Part shown: positions 7,061 to 63,936 of the stretch, piece by piece
How the letters are laid out: each line of letters begins with the position of its first letter
Numbering within the stretch: position 1 is the stretch's first letter
From: Pelagomonas calceolata
Lineage: Eukaryota
Reading direction: 5' to 3'
Length of the DNA stretch: 64,000 nt
Assembly (NCBI GenBank): GCA_918797485.1
Contig: CAKKNE010000003.1
Coordinates: forward strand, 2,418,001-2,482,000
Position numbers and translations under genes: made by a program
Notes under the pieces: generated by a model
Told to the model about the DNA's origin: nothing
Database searches by the model: none
The model's input: the letters and a program-made list of their open reading frames with translations, nothing else

Positions 7061-8266
7061 TCAATAAACCTCCACGTGGTACCGCTTCTCCTTGCGGAGC
7101 GCCTTGATCCACGTCTTGAAGTCGAGGCCCCGCGCGACCGCCGCTTGTTCAAGAGCCGCCTCGATGCCCGGCTGCATGCCCTTGAGGCCGCACAAGTAGA
7201 GGTGGGCGCCGCCCGCGAGGCGCTCGAAGAGCTCGTCCGCGCGCTCCGTGAGCCGCTCCTGGACGTACATCTTCCCTCCAGTGGAAGTGGTCTGCTCCCT
7301 TGAAATCGCGAGTGTGAGCTCGAACTGGCCCGGCTTGTTCGCCGCGGCCTGCTCCCAGAGCTCCGGGTACAACACCGAGTCCGACGTCGGCCCGCCGAAC
7401 AATAACCAGGCCCGGCCCTCGAACGCCGCCGCCGCGGGCGTCCTTTCAATAAAGAGACGCTGAATGAACCCCCGGAAGGGCGCGACGCCCGTGCCCGTCG
7501 CGACCATGATGATGTCGGCCTCGTCGTCGTCGGGCAGGAGCATGCCTTTCCCGACGGCGCCCGTGATTTTCACGGAGGCGCCGGGCTTGGAGTCGCACAG
7601 AAAGTTCGAGCAGACGCCCTTCTTCGCTGGGTCCTCCGCACCGGTCTCGGGGTCCACATAAACGGCTCTACGGACGCAGAGCGACACGGACGTGCCGCCG
7701 CCGTCGTCCCCGTACCGCGACGACGCGATGGAGTAGAGCCGCTGCTGGTGGGGCTTGCCCGTCTTCGCATCAATGCCGGGCGGCAGCACGCCTATTGATT
7801 GGCCCTCGACGTAGGGCAGCCGCCCGCCCGTCTGCAGGGCCACGTGGCAGATCTCGCCCGGCGCGTCCGGGCCGATGGCGCGCTTCACGCTCATGACCGT
7901 GCTCTCGAGCGGCTGCGTCGGCTTGAACTTCGAGGCCGGCGTCTGCGGGTACTCGAGGAACGTGAGCTCGGGGCCCGGCGCGGCCGCGGCCGGTGCTGGT
8001 ACCGCCGCCGCATTTGAGGAGTAGATGGGCACGTCCGTGCGCTGGGCGAGCTCCTGCTCGAGCGCCGCGATCTTCTCGGCGTAGGACGCGTAGACCTCCT
8101 CCTTGGCCTTGCGCACGCTCTCGAGCTTGAGCGCGTGCTGCGCGGCGATCATGTCGGCCATCGCGTCGGCGGCGTCGAACTTCAGGGAGGTGCCGCCTTT
8201 GGAGAGGGACGGCGGCGGCTGCAACGCGCTGGCGAGCCCCGCAAGCGCGACGAGGAGACGCATCAT
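7061..8266 (-). CDS. petH: Ferredoxin-NADP+ reductase, plastid-type
   Basis: RLYSIASS, GVCSNFLC, MVATGTGVAPF, YLCGLKGM, C-terminal HVEVY; N-terminal signal peptide. Confidence 0.95.
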   Translation of the reverse strand: MMRLLVALAGLASALQPPPSLSKGGTSLKFDAADAMADMIAAQHALKLESVRKAKEEVYASYAEKIAALEQELAQRTDVPIYSSNAAAVPAPAAAAPGPELTFLEYPQTPASKFKPTQPLESTVMSVKRAIGPDAPGEICHVALQTGGRLPYVEGQSIGVLPPGIDAKTGKPHQQRLYSIASSRYGDDGGGTSVSLCVRRAVYVDPETGAEDPAKKGVCSNFLCDSKPGASVKITGAVGKGMLLPDDDEADIIMVATGTGVAPFRGFIQRLFIERTPAAAAFEGRAWLLFGGPTSDSVLYPELWEQAAANKPGQFELTLAISREQTTSTGGKMYVQERLTERADELFERLAGGAHLYLCGLKGMQPGIEAALEQAAVARGLDFKTWIKALRKEKRYHVEVY

Positions 8267-8474
8267 AGCTGAGAGCGTCCTAATGTGCCGCGCCACGGCT
8301 TACAAGCAGCAAATATCAAGGCGTTCTCTCGCTGTGTTTTGAAAGCTGATGGTATGGTATAGGTATAGGTAAGGGGTAAGGTATAGATAGGGACGCTTGG
8401 AGTTCAACGAATGACTTTAGCCTAGACATAGGGAGGGAGAGGGGTGCGACAGGGAGAAGACAGACAGGACGAGC

Positions 8475-9075
8475 TCAGGACCACGGGCACGACGCGCAGA
8501 CGGCCGGCCGGAAGATCCAGAGGATGATCGCCGCGATGACGGCAGACGTCGGGATGGTCAGGATCCAGGACACGAGGATCTTCCCGAGCATGGACCACTG
8601 GACGTGCTTGCAGCCGAGCGAGGCCAGCGCGACGGCCGTCACGGCGCCGATCTGGCAGTGAGTGGTAGAAACGGGCTGCTCCTGGATGGTGGCGATGACG
8701 ACGGACAGCGTCGAGCCGAACTCGATGCACCAGGCCGTGTGGAAGTCGACCGTCGCGATCTTGGACCCGACGGTGCGGATCACGCGCCAGCCGAGCGACC
8801 AGACGCCGAGCAGCACGAAGAAGCCGCCCACGGCCATGATCCAGACCTGTGTGGAAATCGGCCAGTGAGTTAGGTTATCTGAGCAGACGCAGCTACGGAG
8901 ACAACATCGCGTCGATGGCGTGGGGCGCCCGAAATTTGATTTCCACACAGATCCAGACGGGCGTCTCCGGCTGGTCGCACGAGTCGAGGCCGTTCTGGTA
9001 CGTGCCGAGCGTCGCCGAGAAGGCCGCCGTCGCGTTCGCCGTGTCGTTCGCGCCGTGGGCGAAGGACTGGACCCA
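8475..9075 (-). pseudogene. C-terminal part of a PiT/SLC20 phosphate transporter (intron 8847-8958)
   Basis: After splicing: QSFAHGANDTANA...ETPVWIMAVGG...GWRVIRTVG...PVSTTHCQIGAV...SWILTIP. An in-frame TAG lies about 10 codons upstream and no N-terminal PiT half is visible before CFAP52. Confidence 0.8.
8847..8950. mobile_element. Introner (non-autonomous TIR DNA element forming intron 8847-8958)
   Basis: TIRs ctgtgtggaaatc (8847-8859) and gatttccacacag (8938-8950); TSD atccagac at 8839-8846 and 8951-8958. On the gene strand the GT comes from the TSD and the AG from the TIR end. Confidence 0.92.
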
Positions 9076-9709
9076 CAGTCGAGCTCGAATCGGCCGGGTT
9101 TTCTAGGCCTCCCAGATATCGATGATATTGATACCTGGTGGGAACTCCCGACGACCTTCGGAGCCGTGGCATCGGCAGCTGGCGAGCCCATCACCCGCGG
9201 GCGCGCGACGACCGCGAACAGCGCAATGTGCTCAGTTAGACCCAGCCACAGGTAACGCACCTCCCATCGGCTAGAAAAGCCCACGTGAAGACCTGAGACC
9301 AAGCGGATTACTTAAACTCTAGGATAAATCGGAAAGGAAAGCAACCAGGACACAGAGCTGCCCAGGCAACGCTGGGAGATGGATCCCCCGCCGCGGACCG
9401 CCGGGCGACCCTGTACGCGGATGAACGCAGAAATAGTGTAGCTACGCTACAGGGGCAACGCCGCGGACGTCACGGTCGACCAGGTCGTCTGGCCCCACGG
9501 TAAGCGTAGAGCACGAGCTCGTGCGCCGCTTGAGGCGAGCCTGCTACGGTGCGAGGACTACTGAGACTGCTGCGGCTTGTCGGGTTTTTACTACAAGCTA
9601 CGCTACATTATGCCATAGCGCGACCGGCGGGGCAGCTAACGAAAAGCGCCGGCCCCAGCGCGTCCAAGGGAGCAGCAGTGCGAAGGGGGCAGCGACCGGG
9701 GCACCGACC

Positions 9710-13586: not shown

Positions 13587-15537
13587 CTAGGCAATGGTGC
13601 AGAACGAAGAGGACTTCTTGGGCGCCGCCTTCTCCTGGTACTGCAATAACCACACAACCTCCTCCTGGTACTTCGTTTCGCTGACGTACAACCAGGACGC
13701 CTCCGGGAACATGCCTGGATCCACCACAATATCCGGTAAATCGGGGAACGTCCCAATTTCATCAGGATCTTCCACATTCAGCGAGTTGCCCGGGGCGAAG
13801 GGCGGCGCTTCTTGTGAGCCCTCGATCGTGTCGGGGTCCGGGTCGTTGCGTAGGACCGACCAGTTGAGTGAGGAGAAGAACGCGTGCGCCGCGACGTTCT
13901 TACAGAGTCGTTGCTCGGGATCTTTCTGCAGCAACTTTGATAGTAAGTCCTTCAACTCACCAGAAAAGTAGGGAGGGTACTCCACACTCATCTCGAGCGT
14001 CGCTTGATTGGCCGACGCGACCGCGTCGCCCTCGTACGTCTTCCGCGCTTCCGCCGTGCGAAAGGGCGACGTCCCACTTACAAGCTCATAGAGCAGGCAC
14101 CCGAAGGACCACCAGTCGACCTCCGTCCCGTACTTGTGACCCTGGAGCATCTCGGGCGCGAGGTATCCCGGAGTACCAGCTACACCCTTTTGAGGTATCA
14201 AAGCCGCCAAGCCCAGGTCCGACAAACGACAACGACCGTCGCCATCGACCAGAATGTTCTCGGGCTTCAGGTCGCGATAGACAAACCCCGCGTCATGTAA
14301 TGCCTCGAGGCCGAGCAACGTCCGTGCCGCGTAGTACCGCGCCGCTTCCTCCGGGAATCTTCTGGAAGGTGCTCTGTCTAGATGAAATGATAAATCCCCA
14401 CCAGTCATCAGATCCAGCACCAGACACAACGCTGACGAACTTTGAAAGGCGTAAATCAACGACACGATGAACGGCGAGTCCGCAACCACAGGATGCGTCA
14501 GACACGCATGCTCGGCGTCACACAAAACTTTAGCCTTCTTCTTCGTGACGTGCTTCAGGTCCATCTCCTTGAGGGCGTACATCTTGCCCGTCCGCAGCGT
14601 CTTGCAGCCCTTCACCAAACCAAAGCCGCCCTTGCCCATGACTCGGATGGTCTCAAAGTCCTCTTCACAAGGTTTGGCTTCGACCTGGGTCTTGAGGTAC
14701 CCTAGGTAGGCGTAGAGGTCCGGGTTCGCGTCTCTACACAAAAAGCAGGGTAAAGCTACTTTCTCGCAGAACGCGAGCATGAGGTCCTCGATTATGTTGA
14801 ATTGGTCTTGGAACGGCGCGTCCTTGGCGATCAACGAGGCGCCGTGGACGAGGGGCAGCTTGTCCCTGCGTGGTTTTATGTTTGCCGCGTCGCGTCGACG
14901 GCGTGCGGTGGGAGCGTCTCGAAGCGCGGCCCGAGACGCCATCGACGCGGCACGCGCGACGACGCGCGACGCCATCGACGCGGGACGCAAATGAGTGTTG
15001 TACTGTCGAGACGCCGCGCCGGTACCGCGAAATAATCGACGTCTCCCGCCGGAAGGACGGCGCCTTCGACGGCCGCGCCAAGCGCCCTTCGAGGCCCAAT
15101 AAGGCGGCATCCTGCACGTGCGTCTTGTACAGCGTCGCGTCCGCCGTAGAAGGCCGCGGCGCCCTCCTCAGATCGCAGGGCAGGTCCCGTTCAACACGCG
15201 CGTCGTTGCCGAAGTAGGTACCCATGATGGACTCATAAAGCGCCGCGTCGTTCTTCGTTTTGAGGAGAGCGACATCAACTAAGAAGTGCGCCGCCGCCCG
15301 CACCGCGCCGCCGCCCTGAACAAACGTCGAGGCCCACCGCGAGAACATGCGCAGGCCCAACGGCCCCTTCAGGATCGCCTCCATGGTCAATAGACCGGCG
15401 TCGTCGGCGCGGCCCAGGAAGGCGTCGAGCTCCTCACATGAGTGCTGGGGGAAGGCGCACTGCGGGCTCGGCTCGGCGCAGCCGCTCAGCGCGTCGGCGA
15501 GGTTCACCGTCGTCGCGAAGTCGTCGATGCCCATCAT
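13587..15537 (-). CDS. GRK-like AGC Ser/Thr kinase with N-terminal RGS-homology region; exons 15537-15026 and 14865-13587
   Basis: GKGGFG, YALK, YRDLKPEN, the GRK-typical SDLGLA (DLG), GTPGYLAPE. N-terminal EAILKGPLGLRMFSRW resembles RGS helices. GT-AG intron 14866-15025 joins the two frames (IISR/DKLP). Confidence 0.85.
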
Positions 15538-28581: not shown

Positions 28582-31500
28582 ATGGAAGTCCGAAGGGCCA
28601 CCCCGGACGACAGCCCCGGCGTCGCGTCGCTCGTGACGCTGACGGGCGGCGCGGCGAAATATCGCAAGCGCTACGGGAACTATAATGTGGCTCAATTACT
28701 AGAGACGGGCTACCTCTGTATTTCAGCTGTTGAGGATGGCAAAATGAAGGCGTTTTTAGTGATTGGGGACGCGCCGCCGCGCTGCAAAGCGGCCGATGCC
28801 GAAAGTTGGGCTTCTACGTTTTGTGCGAATTATACGGAGGGTGGCGCGATTGGCACGTGTGCGTGGATTGATTTCTCTGCGGCACTTGATGCAGACACCG
28901 CTGCTACGCGAGCGTGTCTGACCTTCGCCGTCTCTACTCTAAAAGGTGTGGACCACTTGATTCTGGCGCGGCAGCCGGACAAGCGGTCGCCGGAAGCGCC
29001 TCCCGAGCTAGCCGAGCTGTTTGATGTGCTCGAGCCGTCGCCCGAGCCGCTCCTAGCAAACTCGGACTTAGCGTACTGTCCTCGGACGAAACTCGCCCCG
29101 ACGCTGTCAGTGAGGGGCGCCTGCGTCGAGGACTCCGATGATTTGCTGCCGATCTTCCAGTCGCAATCTGAAGTCCTCGCGGAGCACTTCGGGGACTTCT
29201 TCCTCGCGGAAATTATTGAAAATGCGGATGAAAACAACAAGCAGCTCGTCGCCGTCGCCGACGACCACGCGGTCGGATTACTAAGTGCCTCCACAGACAT
29301 TGACGTCGCGACGCTCGGCGCGTGCTTCGAGCTCCAGCCCTTCGGGAACCTCGTCAAGGGCTCCTCGACGGAGGGTCAAGTACCGTCCGAGCAACCGGCC
29401 GATGCGCCGGCGGCCGCGCCCGCGCCGGCCGCCTTCGCCGCCGAGGAGGAGGTGGCCGTCGAGTCAAACTGCATGGCCGTGACGCTCTTCTGCCTGGACG
29501 CGCAGCACGAGTCGCGAGCGGCGGACTTCTTCGCGGCCATGTTCCAGTTGTGGCCGGACAAAAAGTACTGCGTCGTCACGGCGCCGCCGACGGTACAAAG
29601 AGCTGCATTTCTGGACGCCTTCGTGTCCATCCCGCCGAGGGCGGGCTCGACCTTTGCCCATACACTCTATTTATTGCATCGCGACGCGTTGCTCGCACCT
29701 TCTTCTTTAAGTGTGAGGCGCTACGACCCGTCACTACATGCCGAGGGCGCCGCCGCGTTAATTGGAGACGTCTCGTCGTTCGCGATTGATGCAGACACGA
29801 AGATGGAGGACAACCCGCCGACGGCGGCCTTTGTTGCGCTCATGAACGAGCAAGTCGTCGCCGTTGTTGATCTCTCGCGTAAAGGCGCCTCGACGGATGC
29901 TATCGACTGGTACAAGGCGAACTATGATATTGAGGCCTACGTGCCCTTTGAGCGCCACCGCGCGCGGGCCCAGGCCGTGCTAACAGATATGGTCGTGAAC
30001 CCGATATTTGCCACGTTCGGGCGCTACGTGCTGAAGGAGGCGATGCGTTTGTACGAGAAGACTTTATTATATCACGAGGCTCCTTCATCAGACGTGGTGC
30101 CTCTGCACGTCCTCGAGACGCTGGTGCCCGTGCCGGCGCGGTGGCGCGCGACGCCCAATCCCGGGGATGAGCTGCTCGGACGGAAGCGCGGCGACGAGGT
30201 ACCGGGCGGCACTTTATTGCACTACTTCGCGCGGCGCCTCGCGTCGGACCCGCGGCTTGTTCTTTCCCGGCGTCCCTTTTGACGCGCCATCGACCCCCAC
30301 GCCATCGAACCACGCCACCCCAACGCCATCGACGCGACGCGGTACCAACGGTCGATATACACAGGAGGTAAACGCGCGGATTGTTGTGATAGGGCTGAGC
30401 ACCTGCGCCGTCGGCATGCTCAAGGCCCTATTGCTCTCGTCGACGGCGAACGTCAAGCGCGTCACGCTGATCAGCGAGCCTGGTATCTCTCGCGCTTCGG
30501 GTGTGGTTGTCGACGAGGACTACCCCGAGCCTTTTGAGTTCGAGGCGCTCGGTCTGGGGCAGCGGCTGCGCGTCATCAAAGCTAGAGCAGTGGCCGTCGA
30601 CGCCGAGGCCAAGGTTGTACAATTGCCCGACGGCGCGTTAGTGCCGTACGACATTCTGGTGCTGGCCCACGGCCTCCAGGAAAGCGCGCAGCGGGACCTC
30701 GTTACGAAAGCGGGCAAGGAGCTCCTGCCCGACGCGAGCGACCTTGCCGATTGGAACTCGCCCGAGGTCGATATTGTGGCGGAGCTCACCAAGGTCCCGT
30801 CAGATATGGAGGAGGAGGCCACGGATTTATCTGGCTTCGTGTCGCTGTCCTCGGACAACGCCTCGGACGAGCTGGCCGACGCGGTGTCGAAACTCGGGGA
30901 GGGCTCCGTGGTTATTGTGGGCGGCGGCTTAGATGCCCTAGCCGCGGCCCGGCGCCTCCTGGATTTGGGGGTGGCCGCGTCCAACATCAAAATAGCCTGC
31001 GAGAATGATCAATTGGAGCCGCTCGGCGATCAAGTCATCGACCGCGTCGTTCAGCAGTCTATGGAAGTGGCCGTCGAGTACGGGCTGAAATTCGCCGAGC
31101 TGGTACGAGACAATGGCGCTCTCAGCGCGGCGCGGTTCGCGCGGCCGGTGCAACAGGACGACGCGCCGGCGCCGGCGCCTCCACAAGAGGACGACGTCGA
31201 GGCGTGGGTCGAGCGGCCCGCGACGCCCCCGCCGGAAATCGTGGATTTGAAGTGTGGCCTTGTCGTCGGCGCGTCGACGCCCGCTGTCGCGGCGAACGCG
31301 GCGGCGCTGACGGACTACCCGCTGACGGTCGATTCAACGTTCAAGACCTGCGACGACAGCATCTACGCCGCGGGCCGCCACGTCGCGGGCCAGGAGCGGT
31401 TCAACTCCCTCGAGCTCGGCGCGTGCCTGGCCCAGAGCCTGCTGGCGCGGCTCACGGATTCCAGCGTCGAGGCGCCGGACTTTCGCAAGGCACGGGCCGT

Positions 31501-32507: not shown

Positions 32508-32735
32508 TTACGGCCCCGCGCCCCGATTAATATCCGTCGAGTTCCTCCACCGTGCAGCCCAAGGCCTTGGCGAGTTCCTCGCATGAAATCTCGTCGTCGT
32601 CGTCGGAAGCCATCGTCTCGCGGGCGCGGAGCGCGTCTCGCGCGTCTTGCAATATCTGGTCTTGCACCTACTACACCTTTTCTTGTGGTCGTGGGCCAGT
32701 GGAGCGGCGCAGGCGGCGCAATTTGTGAGGATCAT
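32508..32735 (-). pseudogene. Internally deleted MYND-RING family copy (N-terminus joined to the extreme C-terminus)
   Basis: MILTNCAACAAPLAH...RCSRCKTRYC is followed directly by DNA matching the family 3' end (ALRARET, in another frame). Confidence 0.75.
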
Positions 32736-32891
32736 TTTGCGTTGGCGGGGTCTGTGAGGGGTCGCGGCGGCGGCGTGTGTGGGCGCGAGAAACCCGTTTT
32801 GCTGCTTTTACTTTTCACGCGCGACGCGACCTAGAGCTGTTTGAACGTCGTTCGGTTCGCTATTCGTCCAAAGAGATTGATGGGACACTTA

Positions 32892-33305: not shown

Positions 33306-34346
33306 TAGCCGCCGTAGCGGTCTCGTTGGACCCCATACTACCCCAGCGATAGTCAATTACAAGTATATGACATCTACATTATAAGAAGGGTACTTTTGGC
33401 TGCCCACGCTTGGGGCGTGAACATCTTTATCTGGACCTCGCGCAAGTCAGTCGATCGTGAAACAAACGATCTCTCCAAGGTCCATGGTGATGGTACACGG
33501 GCTGATGGTCGCAGGTCCAAATAATTCGGCCCAATTAGCCAGATCGTGGGCTCGCGAGACCAACGAGCCGCGCCGAGCATCTTTGGGTCTCGGAGCAATG
33601 TAGTACACAGTCAAGCTGGTTAGCTGGCCCGTCCCACAACCAAAGCGCCTGAAACGCAAATTTATTTCACAACTCACGGGTCTGGGGCCAATTCAGTGCC
33701 CCGCGTACGCACCGTCGTCCGCGGAGAACGGGCAGGTCGGTCGATCGTGAATAGAACAACGGCGTTATGGTCCATCTGGAAGGTATCGTCGCCGATACTC
33801 GCGGGTGCAGGTTCTGAATCCATCTTCGCAAAAACTTGGGGGCGCCGAGTCGACGAATCGGGAGGCTCTAACGGAGCACCTATCATAGCTCATAGTCGCT
33901 GAGGCGGCTATGATGGAATCTACCACCAACAAACGGAAGGAAACGAACATAAACGCGAGAGTTGTCTAGTAGAATTCTTCTCCCGCCTTCCGAGCGCGGG
34001 CCGTCGGCTCCGGTTCCGTCGAGTGTGTATGAAAACTGGGCTGGAGTTGATATAATGTACTATCTGGACGATAGATGGCGGCGTCAATCGTTGGTGTAAT
34101 TTGGCAAGCCGTAAGACTTATCCGTGAATGTCGCGGGCGGTGCCTTCCGGGAGGCGCGAGGGTATGTTCCCGCGCCCCTACGCTGAAATCTTTGGTCGCG
34201 GCGAACGACTAGGATGTGTTCTGAATTTGGGTCATTCTTTTGACGCTATCGGAGCGTATCTTTGAATTTGCTAGTAAGTCGCTACGCTAGCTAACTCTAC
34301 CAGAGCAATTCCCGCCGCCGCGACCCTCAGACCCCGCCAAAGCAAG

Positions 34347-34730
34347 ATGATCCTCACAACTTGCGCCGCCTGCGCCGCCCCACTGGCCCACACCGCGCCG
34401 CGATGTATTAGATGCCACACGAGATACTGTAACAAAACTTGCCAGCATGACCACTGGCGCCGCGGTCACAAGCAGATGTGTAAAAAAATACACCGCGGCG
34501 GCAACGCCGAGCAATACCACGCCAACAAAAAATATAAGGAGGCCGTCGCGGTCGCGGTCGAGAAATGCGCGGACGACACGAAGGGCCAGACGTGCTACAT
34601 TTGTACGCAGGCGCTCCATTGGAAAACGAAGGAGGGCCTCGTGCGCGGGTGTGCGTGCCGCGGGACGGCGGGCTTCGCGCATGTTTCTTGTCTGGCGGAG
34701 CAGGCGAAGATTTTGATGGACGAGGCCGAA
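34347..34730 (+). pseudogene. 3'-truncated MYND zinc finger + RING-variant gene
   Basis: CAAC...CIRC...YCNKTCQHDHW..GHKQMC (MYND) and CYIC...GCACRGTAGFAHVSCL (RINGv start); then the sequence switches abruptly to U2-like DNA. Confidence 0.8.
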
Positions 34731-34844
34731 TGCCTTGGAATACTTATCACTCGCATTTTTGGGATTAGGGGGTGACGCGTCGCTTGCGTACCGTCCTCCC
34801 ACCGATGTCCACGGCCTTGCACCACCGCCGTGTGACGTCAACCC
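34731..34844 (+). ncRNA. 3' half of a divergent U2 snRNA (fragment)
   Basis: Aligns with 38704-38817: Sm-site-like atttttg, stem III with cttg loop, stem IV with ttgcac loop. No 5' half or branch-point recognition region. Confidence 0.8.
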
Positions 34845-35218: not shown

Positions 35219-36537
35219 ATGGCGTCATACGACGAAGCCCTCCAAAAGATGTACAGCGACCGCCTCACGCGCTTCTACCGGAACTACGACGAGGCCAAGG
35301 TCGCGAGCGTCCCAAGCCGTGCGGAAATCAAAATGAACCAGTGGCCCGCGCGAGCGCCGAGTGACGACTCGCGTCGATGGCGTGTCAGCTCTACCATCAC
35401 GGGAAAGAGCTCCCGACGCGGCGCGGCGATGGCGTGAAGCGGGGCCCGCGTCGCGTCGATGGCGTTCGGGGTGGCCCGCGTCGACGCCTAGACGTCGTCG
35501 GCGTGAGGATGACAGAGAGATGGAGAGAGAGAAACCAGAACAGGATGTTTCGAGAGACGTGGATGACAGAGAGAAGGAGAGAGAGGGAGATCAGAACAGC
35601 CATAGAACTCCACGCCACACTCAGGTCCCGACGCTCCTCCAAAAGTACAAAGGCAAAGAAGAGCAGCTCCTCGCGGCCATGGTCAAGAAGTACGGCCCCG
35701 AGCCCGAGCCCGAGGACGACGCCGCCGACGCGGCGGCGACGGACGAGGAGGACGACGAGCACCCGCGCGTCGCGCCGGGCAAGAACGCCGACGGCGCCGA
35801 CGACGACGAGGAGCTGGCGCAGCCGGCGCCCGAGGAGCCGTTTGTGCGCGGCGTCCGTTGTTTCTTCGACGCGGCGCGGCGATGGCGTGAAGCAGCCCGC
35901 GTCGACGCCTAGATGTCGTCGCGGCGCGGCGATGGCGTGAAGCCGGGCCCGCCTCGCGTCGACGGCGTCCGGGATGGCTCGGGTAGGGTGAAGAGAGATG
36001 GGAGGAGAGAGAGAGAGAGCGATAAAAACGCGCAGGGAATCCGACGGCGAGGACAAGGTCCCGATCTACTGCCCCTTGAACGGCCTTCCGCCGGAGTACT
36101 GCGAGTACTACCCCGACTACGACAAGACGCGGCCCTGGATCGCCGAGCACTGCCCCCATTTACTAAAGGGCGAGGACGAGGCCGGCGACGTCGGCAAGAA
36201 GGGCAAGCGCGGCGGCGGCGTCATCAAGAAGAAGACCATCAGCGCCGACAAGCAGAAGGTCATCATCTCGAAGGAGGTGCGGAACAAGAAGAAGGCCGTG
36301 ACGAGCGTCGAGGGCCTCGAGACCTTCTCCGTCAAGCTCAAGGACGCGGCCAAGGTCTTCGGGAAGAAGTTCGCGGCCTCGTCGTCGGTCAAGGAGAAGG
36401 ACAGCGGCGGCCAGGAGATCGTCATCCAGGGCGACGTCATCTGGGACCTGCCCGCGCTGCTCGAGAAGGAGTACAAGATCCCGAAGTCCAAGATCTTCGA
36501 GCGCGAGAAGGGCGGCAAGCTGTCGAAGGTGCGGTAA
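35219..36537 (+). CDS. DENR: DENR/Tma22 (SUI1-domain) protein with extra N-terminal helical domain; exons 35219-35308, 35625-35839, 36036-36537
   Basis: YCPLNGLPPEYCEY, RNKKKAVTSVEGLETF, KVFGKKFAASSSV, EIVIQGDV. Two GT-AG introns restore the frame. Confidence 0.85.
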
Positions 36538-36598: not shown

Positions 36599-37405
36599 TT
36601 ACTCGATGACGACCACGTCGTCGTCGTCGTCCGGCAGCGGCCGCTTCCGGTACTTGTCCGCCTCCTGCCTCAGGCGCCGCTCGTAGGCCGGCCGGTTCCG
36701 CTCGTAGAGCGTCTGGACCTCGGGCCGCGCGCCGGCGGGGAACGGGTTGTCCAGCAGCTCCTGGATCGCGCACAGAATTTGCTTGATCGTGATCGACGGC
36801 GACCACTGGCCGTGCCACGTCCCGTCGGGCTCGTTCAGCAGATTGAGGCAGATGCGCCCGCTGCTCCAGACGTTCAGGTGCCAGAAGACCTGTGCGTAAA
36901 ACAAAATTTCACGGCGCATTCGTGCTGAGTCGTCGCGTCGACCTCCACGCCAGACGCGCCGGCTCACTGGTTGATTTGTGCACGGTTCTTCGACCTCGCC
37001 CGGCCGCGACACGAACTTGACGACCGGCGCCGTCGCGGGGTAGTCGCTGGAGAACTCCATCGTGAGGTTGAACTCGCAGCCCTCCCACCTGCACGCGCGT
37101 GGCGTCGTCATCAGGGTGCGTCGCGGCGATGGCGTGACGGTGGGTAGCACGTCTCGCGTGCGCCGTGCGGGGACGCCGTCGTGCCGACAAGACGTCGAGA
37201 CACGACCCGATACGAGTATGAGAAGGCACCGCGGACGCGGAAACGCGTACATCGTGTCCTTCTTGCCCGGGATGACGACGTCCCAGTTCAGGAGGTCCGT
37301 CGACCCGTCGGCCTTGCTCCGAGGCCGCGCGACGAAGCCGATGGGGTGGTCCTTGCGCCAGCTGCGCCGTTCCTCGCGGAGGCGTCCTTCGGCTATGCCG
37401 GCCAT
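36599..37405 (-). CDS. UBC9: SUMO-conjugating enzyme Ubc9; exons 37405-37251, 37088-36995, 36889-36599
   Basis: MAGIAEGRLREERRSWRKDHPIGFVARP, IPGKKDTM/WEG, HLNVWSSGRICLNLL, WSPSITIKQIL. Confidence 0.92.
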   Translation of the reverse strand: MAGIAEGRLREERRSWRKDHPIGFVARPRSKADGSTDLLNWDVVIPGKKDTMYAFPRPRCLLILVSGRVSTSCRHDGVPARRTRDVLPTVTPSPRRTLMTTPRACRWEGCEFNLTMEFSSDYPATAPVVKFVSRPGEVEEPCTNQPVSRRVWRGGRRDDSARMRREILFYAQVFWHLNVWSSGRICLNLLNEPDGTWHGQWSPSITIKQILCAIQELLDNPFPAGARPEVQTLYERNRPAYERRLRQEADKYRKRPLPDDDDDVVVIE

Positions 37406-38628: not shown

Positions 38629-38818
38629 ACCTTTCTCGGCCTTTTGGCTAAGATCAAGTGTAGTATCTGTTCTTATCAGTGTGATAACTGATATCCTTAG
38701 CACTGCTTTGGAATTCTTATCACTCGTATTTTTATGATCCGATGGTGATGCTCTGCTTGCAGACGTCCTGTCACAGATGTCCTAGTGCCTTGCACAACCG
38801 CCTAGTGACGTCGACCCC
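38629..38818 (+). ncRNA. U2: U2 spliceosomal snRNA
   Basis: ttctcggccttttggctaagatcaagtgtagtatctgttcttatcag is the conserved U2 5' region with the GUAGUA branch-site sequence; Sm site and 3' stems follow. Ends approximate. Confidence 0.95.
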
Positions 38819-44987: not shown

Positions 44988-47900
44988 ATGGCAACAACCC
45001 TCGCCCCGCGCGCGCCCTTCGACGCAAAAAAAGCCGCAGCAGCCATGGACGCGAAGCTCCTCCCCTTCCAGAAGGAAGGCGTCGCGTTCGGCCGGCAAGT
45101 CAAAGGACGGGTCCTGATAGCGGACGAGATGGGCTGCGGCAAGTCGGCCCAGGCCATCCGATTATGTTTAGAATACGCGGACGAGGCGCCCGTATTAATC
45201 GTGTGTCCCGCGTCGTTACGCTACACGTGGGCGCACGAAATTGAAAAATGGCTCCCGACACTAGCGCCCTCCGAAGTCTCCATCGCGAAGGGTCGAGCGG
45301 ATCGCGAGGCCGTCGCGCGAAAAGGCGTCCGCTTCGTGATCGTGACCTATTCATTGTTCACGGAGAGCTCGCAAGTTGCAAGTGCTGTGAGACAACGAAA
45401 ATTCAGAGTTGTGGTGGTGGACGAGTCCCATTCGTTGCGGACGCGGGACTCGCAGCGCACGAAACTATTACTGCCGATCATGAAAAATGCTTCTCGGTTG
45501 CTACTGCTGTCGGGCACGCCGGCACTCGCAAGACCAGTAGAGCTCTACGCCCAGGTCCACGCCTTGGATGAGAAGGAGTTCGGCACCTACTCCGCGTATA
45601 CGAAGCGCTACTGTAATGCGAGACGGGGCCGCTTCGGCTGGGACGTGACTGGTTGTAGCAACGCGCAAGAATTGCACTCAAAACTGGCCAAGGTCATGGT
45701 GCGGCGCCTGAAGCGCGACGTGTTGTCGCAGTTACCGCTTGTGTCAGTGTGGAAACCAACCAGGGAGTGTGGGGCGCGTCGATGGCGTCAAGGCGAGAGA
45801 CTCAGTCGACGCGGTCGAGACGCGCGTGGCCTGGCCAAGCGCCTCGACGGTGTAGTGGCGCGTCGATGGCGTGAAGCAGGGCGCACGTCGCGTCGATGGC
45901 GTCTGGGTCGGCCCGCAGCGATGGCTGGACGCCGTCGACACGCCGCCACCGCGAGAGAAAAGGCCATCGACGCGACACAACACAAAAACGAAACGCAGGC
46001 GCAAGCGCCGCCAGCTCGTCGCCGTCGAGGCCGTTGATAAGAAAGCTCTCGACGAATCGAAGAAGGCCTGTTCGTCACTCGGAGACGCCTCTCGAGCCAT
46101 CGCAAATGCCTCGAACGAGGACGCGTGGGAAAAGCGAGGTGAGAAGCAAGTGGCATTGGGCGACGCGTGGCAGAAGTCGGGCCTCGCGAAAGCCTCAGCG
46201 GTGGCCGCCTACGCTCTAGATTTGCTACAAAACCAGGGAACGAAAATACTGGTCTTTGCCCACCACAAGGCCGTGATGGACGCGCTCGAACAAAACTTGG
46301 TGCGAGGTCTGAAGGGCGCCAAGGCCATGATGCGCATCGATGGGACGACGCCGCCGCGGGAACGCCAACGATTGGTGGAGGCCTTCCAGAACAATCCTGG
46401 AACTAGATTAGCTTTGCTCAGCGTGACGGCCGCCGGGACTGGTTTAACATTAACGGCGGCCTCGGCCGTATTATTCGCGGAGCTCCACTGGACGCCTGGT
46501 GTACTAGTGCAGGCCGAGGACCGAGCGCATCGCATCGGCCAGCACGCCTCGGTGAACGTGCATTACTTAGTATTGAAAGACGAAAGTCAGTCGGTGGACA
46601 TGGCGCTCTGGCGGGCCATCGGCAACAAGGTTAAAGTCGTCGGCAAGACCATCGATGGGATGGAGAAGGCGTCGCTAGGCGCGACGGCGGCGACGGCGCC
46701 GCGTTCGGAACAGGACGCGCTCGTGTCGTTCTTTGATCAGGAAGGGGCCCGGGCGCAACAAGTCGCCAAGGCGGATATTCGGTCGTTCTTCGCTCCGAAA
46801 AAGAAGAAGGCCCCTCCACCAGAATTAGATGATGCTGCGCTGATCCGCGCGACCGAGGCGGCCGAGCGCGCCGCGGCGGCGCCAAAACCGAAGCGCTACG
46901 ACCCGCGCACGCTCCTCGCGGCGCCGGCGCCCGCGCCCCCGAAGAAGCGGCGCTCCTCCGAGGGCTCGGGCTCCGCTGCCGACCCGCTCGACCTCTGCCT
47001 CTCGTCGGACGACGAGAAGGAGGATCAGCGCTGGCCCTGCTCGGCCTGCACGTTCGCCAATGACTCGAAGCGCACGACGTGCGAGATCTGCGCGACGCCG
47101 CGGGTGCGGGCGAGCTCGTCCTCGACGGCGGCGGTGCCACGGCGGTCCTCCGCCTCGTCAACATCCTCATCACCGTTGACGACGCGCTACGCGTTCAGCG
47201 TGTCGGCCAACACGGGCCGCGTGTCGGCCTTTTCTTCGCGTGAGGGCGCTCCTTTCGCGCGGCTCATGGACGCCTTTGATCCCGCGGTTCTAGTTGATGG
47301 CGAGGGCCGGCTATTACCTTTATCGGCCGACGACCTCGGGTTGGACGATGATGATGATGCGAGGGCGGTCAAGAAGTTCGTGGCGGCGTGGCGCTCTTTG
47401 AGAGCCGTGGACCGCCAGACTTTATCAGGAGACGAATTGCTGGAGGAGGCGCTCGACGTCGAACTTAGGAAAAGGCGCGCCTCGTCTTCGGACAAGTGCT
47501 TCGACCGCGGCGTCGCGCGGCCGCGGAAGCGGGCCCGCGCCGACGGTGATGAGGACGACGATAAGAGAGCGTGCCCCTGGTGCGAGAAGCCGCTGCCATC
47601 GGACGCGCCGGACGGTTCTTTTTGTGATTGGGCGTGCGCGTCCGAGCATAAATTACGAAAGCCGAACAACTCCCAGGCGTCACGGTCGCAGTTATTTGCT
47701 TTAGAACACGGCGTCTGCACGGCTTGTGGTTTGGACGCGCACGCTTTGTACAGACGCGTCAAAGCATTAACGCCGCCGGAGCGCTTCCAGGTGCTCATGG
47801 CGACGCCGGGCTTTGCCCCTCGCGGCAAGAAGGACCGCCGGTTAGATACTTGTCTGGAATGCGACTACTGGCAGGCCGACCACATCATACCCGTCGCGGA

Positions 47901-62006: not shown

Positions 62007-63936
62007 ATGGATTGCTCGAAGGTGCTCCTGCCCTGCGTCGCGCTCTTAGCCATTGGAGGGTTCCTCACGTCGCAGCAAAAAATCCGCGAGGCCGCCGCGA
62101 CCGATATAGAATACGTGCGCCACGAGATTAGGGAGGAGGTCCACGGCCTCGAGTCGTGGTTAAGGCACCCGCACTCGAAGCACCACCCCGCGGCTGTGGA
62201 TGACGCGGGGCCCGCGGCCTGGCGCGACCTGGGGCGAGATGTCGACCTGTTCCTGAAGCGCGTCGAACGGTTGGAGGCTTCCAACCTGGAGACGCTCAAA
62301 ACTCAAATCAAGCAAGACGAGAAAAAGCTGCGAGTAGCAGAACACCGGGACCAGACGACCCATAAGACGCACACCCGCCACAACGCCAAGCCCGGCAAAC
62401 TTATTTGTGATGGCAAATCGATCCAGCACGAGATCATCTACTGGAAGGACGTCCCGGGGGACATGACGTATGAATCTCCGATCACGCCGCACCACGCAAA
62501 TCACGATCAAAAATACTTGACGTTCGAGTATGACGCGGGCGGCTGGAATAATGTTAGGATGGGCGTCGAATGCGTCGTCGTGTTTGCCCATGCGACGGGA
62601 CGGACTCTTGTAGCCCCCCCGGCCCAGAACTTGTACTTGCTCGGGGCGCCGAACCCGCACTCGCAGAAGCGCAAGTTGGGATTCAACGACTTCTTCGTCA
62701 CGGACCGTCAGTGCTCAGAGTCGTCGACGGCGCCTTCACGGGACCGCGGCGCCTCGACGGCGTGGTCGCGTCGATGGCGTCGACGCGATGCCACGCCGCC
62801 TCGACGCCGTCGACGCGGCCGCATGAGAGTCTACGCGTCTCGCGAGAGAGTCGCCATCGACGCGGCCGCATGCGAGTGTCGCGACGGTATCAAACACAGG
62901 CCTCGAAGCCCAAGAAGGCATGCACATGATTTCCATGGAGGAGTTTCTGAAAAGACAGCAGTCGGAAGTGGAGATCTGGCGAAGGCCCAACGCGACGGAC
63001 TTCTGGGGCCAGAAGCTCTGGAGATATCTCAAAAAAAGTGCGGACGTCAAGCCGGAGTACTCCGGGCAAGTCGTGGCCATGGGCCGCTTAAATCCGACAG
63101 CCGAGACGAAGGCCAAGGACGCGGAAGCGCTCAAGAAGCAAGCCGCGGGTCGGAAAGTGGCCGCATATGATTCGAAAGCCCAAAACGCGCGGCACGTTCA
63201 CTTTCCCGCTGGTGGGAAGCATCGCCTGCTGAACCACTTTTATGCGTTCGGTTTTTTTGGAGATCCGCAGCAGCGCAGCTTCTATCGGCGACTCATACGA
63301 GACAGCATGAGATACAGGGACGAGATCCAGTGCGCCGGGGCGCGAGTCGTGGATGCTGTGAGAGCACACTCTAGAAGATTAGGCAATGATGGCACGTTCT
63401 ACGCCCTACATATAAGAAGGGGCGACTTCCAGTTCAAGGCTGTCAAAATTTCTGCGGGCGAGATCGTCGAGAACCTGCGCGGGAATAGTATCATCCCGAG
63501 AGGCGCCTTGGTGTATCTGGCTACCGACGACCCCGACGGCGTCTGCAAGGGCTGCTGGGCGAACAAGAAACCTTGTAAAGATCAACTCGGAGTCGAGGGC
63601 TGTCCCAAGGACGCGTCGTGGGACGCCTTTGTGAGGAACGGGTGGCACGTTACGGTACTCAGAAACTACACGGAAGCTACCCACGGCACGAATCCGAACT
63701 ACTTCGGCATGGTCGATAGCATCGTGTGTGCCCGGGCCGCCGTCTTCGCCGGGACTTGGTTTAGCACCTTTACGGGCTATATTCACCGCTTGAGAGGGTA
63801 TCATGGGTTGGGCGAGGAGACATATTATCATTCTACCGGCAAGGTCGACCTGGCGCGGTCGCCCAAAAGTATAGGGTCGGGCTACTCGCGCGAGTGGCGG
63901 ATCGGCTGGACGGACGACGGCGGGGCGAATATCTAA
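62007..63936 (+). CDS. GDP-fucose O-fucosyltransferase-like protein; intron 62707-62899
   Basis: N-terminal TM, YLTFEYDAGGWNNVRM, ALHIRRGDF, VYLATD, DSIVCARA..FAGTWFSTFTGYI. The GTCAGT...CAG intron restores the frame. Confidence 0.82.

Follow-up and report, generated by a model that had tools for sequence, protein, structure and literature searches.

Gene context and structure of the element

The window analysed here is a stretch of 64,000 nucleotides from Pelagomonas calceolata. The named records P0070 and P0114 agree with this origin, and a helicase encoded nearby groups with a record of that species. Its minus strand carries two coding segments of a PiT gene, both assigned to PHO4 (Pfam): a final segment of 123 codons plus the stop at 8475–8846 (PF01384, E = 2e-28) and a remnant, SFAHGAND...PETP, at 8959–9066, whose homology ends at ca. 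9072 in an alignment with homologues. A tblastn search with 30 PiT proteins matched only 8448–9072, corresponding to residues 411–571 of the 572-aa best match (P0002), and found nothing convincing for the rest of the gene upstream within the window. Because the RNA of the adjoining gene begins at ca. 9630, the ca. 410 missing codons cannot fit between the two genes. The host of the element described below is the last ca. 160 of ca. 570 PiT codons, with the first ca. 410 absent at the locus. The upstream sequences joined to this PiT tail differ among related records, of which the P0108 cluster retains more of the gene; such varied joins would be as expected of a decaying locus. The remnant of 159 codons contains zero stops or frameshifts and has a GC3 of 0.97–1.0, and it may therefore still be under selection or have been truncated only lately. 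In the reading frame of the final exon, a 238-aa ORF (8475–9191, minus strand) continues across the element without a stop, and gene prediction could mistake it for a gene with one exon. A ferredoxin-NADP reductase-like gene lies at 7061–8266 on the minus strand; many RNA reads there come from a paralogue whose flanks differ, with loose ends at 7588–7742.

The two coding segments are separated by a 104-bp non-autonomous element bounded by terminal inverted repeats (TIRs) at 8847–8950 (no strand assigned), recognised as a short-form introner family member by its TIR and target site duplication (TSD) structure and by the recurrence of the family ends at 8950. The 8-bp TSD, ATCCAGAC, is exact at 8839–8846 and 8951–8958, as a previous sequence-only reading had stated. 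The same reading described perfect 13-bp TIRs, and the 13-bp sequence CTGTGTGGAAATC at 8847–8859 indeed has its exact reverse complement at 8938–8950; however, the family TIR is 15 bp long, and this copy differs at positions 14–15, with GG instead of the family AA (8860–8861, plus strand). The predicted intron's 5′-side TIR (8936–8950, minus strand) agrees with the 15-bp family consensus.

On the minus strand, the 112 nt from 8958 to 8847 start with the GT of a TSD copy and end with the CAG of a TIR, and are predicted to form a phase-0 GT-AG intron. The TSD copy at 8951–8958 would leave with this intron, its first two bases being the predicted GT donor according to the sequence and the family rule described below (37/37), whereas the TSD copy at 8839–8846 would remain in the exon as the codons V-W-I. 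The TIR at 8847–8859 would close this intron at its 3′ end, and its final three gene-strand bases are the CAG acceptor, which is also used by the public gene model P0114. The motif CTAAC (8869–8873, minus strand), 27 nt before the acceptor end, is a candidate branch point by the branch-point consensus; in a family-wide branch-point comparison, the TIR itself fits the pattern. Just within one TIR, GTGAGT at 8863–8869 (plus strand) is a strong donor-like site by the donor consensus, and it could compete as a donor when the element sits in the opposite orientation.

The arrangement at 8839–8958 is not due to chance, because 1 of the 83 exact inverted pairs of at least 13 bp in the whole window was flanked by an exact 8-bp duplication, a combination that none of 20 Markov-resampled windows contained. 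The exact 13-bp TIR occurs in the window only at the two ends of the element, and allowing up to 3 mismatches yielded 13 matches (9.6 expected). The RNA fold of the element had a z-score of −2.56, which was owed to the TIR stem. DNA contigs from X4 (7993–8910 and 8923–9496) and X1 (8300–8903 and 8934–9700) cross both element ends with zero differences, and none covers the entire element; X1 may be the source of the window assembly.

Predicted scar-free removal and expression at the locus

In silico removal of 8847–8958 yields PETPVWIMAVGG, in register with PiT homologues, and the resulting junction, ...QPETPVWIMAVGG..., is gapless at the join in alignments with most of 14 PiT homologues. Leaving the 112 nt in place produces a stop, and taking out only the 104 bp of the element produces a frameshift. 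The earlier claim that removal restores the coding sequence exactly was thus correct, and splicing of 8847–8958 would be scar-free.

The RNA examined comprised ca. 6,250 million letters in four raw runs (X21–X24, one sample) and one contig run (X8, another study). At 98% likeness, the 8847/8958 junction was not among the four joints listed for X22–X24, in which the depth on both PiT exons was 0. At 90% likeness, it was likewise not among the joints listed for X21 and X8, where exon coverage was almost zero: in bins free of element reads, the depth was 0–1.6 in X21 and 0 in X8, compared with 31–342 for two neighbouring genes in X21. As a further hint, nine contig runs that are probably RNA contain 0.56–0.61 of the words, approximately what the two neighbours alone would contribute. 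These runs thus contain almost no RNA from the host PiT fragment, and this near-silence of a 5′-truncated host explains why the 8847/8958 splice was not observed. PiT genes are commonly repressed by phosphate, a possible reason for the low RNA level.

The public model P0114 (CAH0371426.1, Pelagomonas calceolata) matches the locus residue for residue and combines the acceptor of the element with a donor at 9134. Its first exon (9134–9191, minus strand) runs from an ATG at 9191 to this GT donor and is joined to the element's acceptor with the omission of 8959–9066, and hence of the HGAND segment; this 9134/8847 junction was unsupported by RNA in the five runs. A short gene that functions under unsampled conditions, using either this splice (142 aa) or read-through of the 238-aa ORF from the ATG at 9191, would account for the existence of the public model, for an ORF open through the element from 9191 to 8475 and for intact coding segments with high GC3. 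However, RNA coverage at 9055–9522 was zero in the five RNA runs, both forms lack the conserved HGAND segment, the PiT tails in related records are joined to many upstream sequences in a deletion-like manner, and the 238-aa sequence was absent from the protein collection searched. A functional short gene is accordingly very improbable. Because the first ca. 410 codons are missing at the locus, the host is most likely a gene in decay, with the window's element as its passenger.

Copies, target sites and splice rule of the family

Family copies were collected by a paired-TIR pattern search of metagenomes, which returned at least 120 loci; excluding two without flanks and three duplicates left 115 copies, and demanding 30-nt flanks left 105. 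These metagenomic copies were picked for perfect 13-bp ends and a length of 86–116 bp, belong to several taxa and may include some assembly chimeras. In addition, 67 contigs in X3 and 54 in X4 depart from the window sequence exactly at 8950 into unrelated flanks (flank agreement, 0.43 and 0.42), a contig depth that is not a copy number. The family is large. None of the at least 120 loci was a window-orthologous insertion site. A viral carrier of the element was dismissed, as two TIR patterns gave 0 matches in viral contigs.

Among the matches listed, an 8-bp TSD was exact in 36 and had at most one mismatch in 61 of the 115 unique copies (shuffled pairing: mean 0.4, maximum 3), and every other length from 3 to 11 was exact in at most 7; after flank filtering, 32 of 105 retained an exact 8-bp TSD. 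The TIR was exactly 15 bp in 76 of these 105 listed matches, and positions 14–15 were AA in 94 at the end where the window has GG and in 98 at the other end. The nearest neighbours at different sites shared at most 95% identity (median 86%; 105 copies among the matches listed). Reads of the family jump back from 8923 to 8881, and other copies therefore have longer, modular interiors. A fixed-length, site-specific TSD, TIRs shared by the family and many copies at unrelated sites are all features of the DNA-transposon type of introner, and the recurrence of the TIR/TSD structure in the 67 and 54 contigs and at least 120 loci confirmed the earlier assignment to this type.

The splice rule was evaluated with a codon model trained on four window ORFs, with each flank scored alone. 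Among the matches listed, 62 copies had long flanks and a TSD with at most 2 mismatches; 25 that were not clearly coding were set aside, leaving 37. On the coding strand, the TSD supplied GT or GC in all 37 of these listed copies; excising one TSD together with the element left the codon phase intact in all 37, and 36 contained no stop after removal. Both orientations occurred (22 and 15 of the 37 listed), with orientation assigned by end type and the internal motif being near-palindromic. As in the window copy, one splice site is carried by the element, the other is co-opted from the TSD, and removal is frame-neutral. The earlier proposal that the TSD provides the donor and the TIR the acceptor thus holds at the sequence level across the family (37/37). 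In 21 of 55 copies among the matches listed, both strands of the TSD begin with GY, compared with ca. 9% expected from splicing selection alone, so the transposase itself is likely to prefer a palindromic GYnnnnRC target.

The sequence-only reading also suggested a possibly active transposase and took the 8-bp TSD as typical of hAT elements. The first suggestion gained no support, as a search of the 40 window ORFs of at least 250 aa returned no transposase domain. As to the second, the family does have the 8-bp TSD of hAT elements, but this feature is not specific, being common to P elements too: the accessible part of one source describes 8-bp TSDs with GT...AC-type motifs for both hobo (GTNCGNAC) and the P element (GTCCGGAC) (PMC3276498). 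For Hermes, a target preference of nTnnnnAn is given in the portion available of another (PMC10368747). The window TSD fits this pattern; across the family, T occupies position 2 in 31 and A position 7 in 16 of 45 copies among the matches listed. Elements of the hAT group terminate in the consensus (C/T)A(A/G)NG. Thus, the introner family shares the 8-bp TSD and palindromic GT...AC-type targets with hAT (Hermes, hobo) and P elements, whereas its CTGTG termini do not match that hAT consensus.

Age of the insertion and allelic variation

The description of the element as pristine was not upheld. In the predicted-protein read-through, six further records of this insertion have WLISTQ at the place where the window has WPISTQ; therefore, both TIR substitutions (GG for AA) are derived. 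The interior is also shortened relative to the family, and the closest of the 105 copies among the matches listed shared an identity of 0.888 with the window copy. Neither a match to the family consensus nor near-identical sisters, as would mark a recently active member, were found in the comparison with these 105 metagenomic copies. A single-copy contig in X1 extends 57 bp into the element, and the 5′ part is unique in X1. Perfect ends had further been taken to mark a recent insertion, but 50 of the 105 perfect-ended copies among the matches listed, some of which may be chimeras, have at least 2 TSD mismatches. Perfect 13-bp ends are not a clock for introner age, and as a caution, they give no date for an introner.

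The evidence on alleles comes from predicted proteins in records of unnamed contigs rather than from DNA. At the insertion site, 7 records are filled, 5 are empty and five have another sequence. The five empty records have an unbroken QPETPVWIMAVGG and are identical to the window exons at 87–88 of 88 residues. Three of them start with sequence resembling intron read-through, which suggests that they represent genomic DNA. The site appears to be polymorphic among alleles identical in protein, and the insertion appears either to be young as measured by protein divergence or to have been lost precisely from some alleles. Recency is thus upheld in part: the empty-site alleles are nearly identical in protein, and two substitutions have been gained since the insertion. 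A second target site of the family in the same gene, GCCACCAT (8686–8693, minus strand), is empty in the window; judging from protein-level read-through, other alleles apparently carry elements of the family there.

A pristine, very recent insertion belonging to a family still mobilised by an active hAT transposase would agree with the exact TSD and 13-bp TIR, with the empty-site alleles identical in protein and with the fit of the window TSD to the Hermes pattern nTnnnnAn (in the available part of PMC10368747). We regard it as quite unlikely, given that the two TIR substitutions are missing from the six further records of this insertion, that among the matches listed no sister exceeds 89% and different-site neighbours reach at most 95% (median 86%), that the 40 window ORFs of at least 250 aa contain 0 transposase domains, and that P elements likewise make 8-bp TSDs (PMC3276498, in part). 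Alternatively, the insertion could be old, with the empty alleles arising by precise intron loss through recombination with spliced cDNA, which is also scarless; this would alter the age of the element and not its identity. The divergence of the family copies, the decayed relatives at 35317, 36890–36985 and 45745 in the window, and the several insert variants at the second site of the same gene are consistent with such an origin, but the TSD copy in the exon has not diverged from the one in the intron, and only 3 of 34 residues differ between the element read-through and allele P0106. An old insertion with later losses is therefore a doubtful, though not negligible, alternative.

Taken together, it is highly probable that the window holds a short member, mutated since its insertion, of a large family of non-autonomous pelagophyte DNA-transposon introners; it would be removed without a scar, and its host is a 5′-truncated, nearly silent PiT fragment. 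A transposase presumably encoded elsewhere would cut an 8-bp target with a loose palindromic GYnnnnRC preference, and insertion would duplicate this target, a duplication seen across copies. Either TIR would present its CAG end on the transcribed strand as an acceptor in both orientations, and the upstream TSD copy would offer a GT or GC donor, both of which are apparent in the copies. The spliceosome could then take out one TSD copy with the element and bring back the original codons, in line with the frame kept in 37/37 copies among the matches listed. The insertion would be young enough for the apparent polymorphism and old enough for two TIR substitutions in the window lineage.

In protein-level records of the second site, for which chimeric assembly is possible, one end of the element comes first in P0091 and P0092 and the other end in P0105, P0106, P0129, P0134, P0139 and P0150. 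Further decayed inserts at this site occur in P0107, P0135, P0137 and P0138. A possible third polymorphic intron lies upstream in PiT, between MMCG and GTDLD in a region absent from the window (P0152 and P0154 versus P0108, P0153 and P0155).

We tentatively propose, at odds short of even, that newly gained introns still segregate in wild populations of Pelagomonas calceolata, where at least two sites of one PiT gene would be filled or empty among protein-identical alleles, one of them filled in both orientations, and where the palindromic GYnnnnRC preference of the transposase would pre-adapt most insertions to scar-free splicing. If so, the apparent presence/absence polymorphism in one gene would provide a within-species test, and existing metagenomes would allow the gain and loss of introns, and selection on new ones, to be quantified in a single abundant ocean species.

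Comparison with known introners

Huff, Zilberman and Roy reportedly found in 2016 an 8-bp TSD in the introner elements of Aureococcus anophagefferens. In Pelagomonas calceolata, the accessible part of an earlier study records 956 putative introners, which have conserved TIRs and use GT/GC donors and AG acceptors (10.1101/2021.10.25.465678, PMC9481584). The window element, matched by description and not by sequence, probably belongs to this published family, although the published introns peak at ca. 210 bp in the same portion of that study and the element measures 104 bp (10.1101/2021.10.25.465678, PMC9481584). The text and five supplements of PMC9481584, in the parts searched, contained 0 mentions of a TSD.

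For Aureococcus, short elements with TIRs are described that insert in both orientations and co-opt a splice site (PMC10228655, available portion), and family 4 of an Aureococcus assembly is scored in part of a supplement as having a TSD and TIRs, with GT in 96% and GC in 3% (PMC9860276). Aureococcus anophagefferens belongs to a different genus, and its families average ca. 200 bp compared with 104 bp here, in a comparison by architecture and size (PMC9860276, in part). On the features tested, the likeness to Aureococcus DNA-transposon introners asserted by the sequence-only reading is real, and introners had already been reported in Pelagomonas calceolata; the window element works like pelagophyte DNA-transposon introners and belongs with them on these features. 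A family in Aureococcus sp. (Gozashti et al., Fig. 2F) also combines an 8-bp TSD with a pelagophyte host in the accessible part of that work (10.1101/2022.06.06.494994). Removal of the window element is scar-free by sequence, whereas members of that family bring both splice sites with them and leave the mRNA 12 nt longer (10.1101/2022.06.06.494994, same part).

Outside the pelagophytes, Micromonas introners in wild populations are present or absent at one site among near-identical coding alleles, according to the available portion of PMC4540971, and the PiT site appears to behave likewise. Micromonas is, however, a green alga with a 3-bp TSD (PMC11282704, in part), and its introners co-opt the acceptor rather than the donor.

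Literature searches found no record with both the TIR string and the word "introner", the string was absent from the searched part of the PMC9860276 supplement, and no account was found of this TIR or of introner polymorphism in Pelagomonas, although figures and supplements may contain one. As the mechanism is published and introners are already known in Pelagomonas calceolata, a single copy carries little weight; the 8-bp TSD, 15-bp TIR and scar-free rule of the family have now been quantified.

Other repeats in the window

Two pairs of dispersed repeats of ca. 120 bp, 77–81% identical, occur at 32647–32773 and 34312–34432 and at 34731–34844 and 38704–38817; blastn showed no relation between them and the element. 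Older relatives of the family, with decayed TIRs and TSDs, are located at 35309–35625, 36890–36994 and 45737–45999. Their hosts are an unassigned ORF, a ubiquitin-conjugating enzyme gene and an SNF2 helicase gene, and all three relatives are likely to be introns. The internal motif CGCGTCGATGGCGT is also found in many probable introns without recognisable TIRs (14890–14982, 30295–30337, 35369–35984, 45775–45975 and 62750–62864), which suggests that the family also left a layer older than these relatives.
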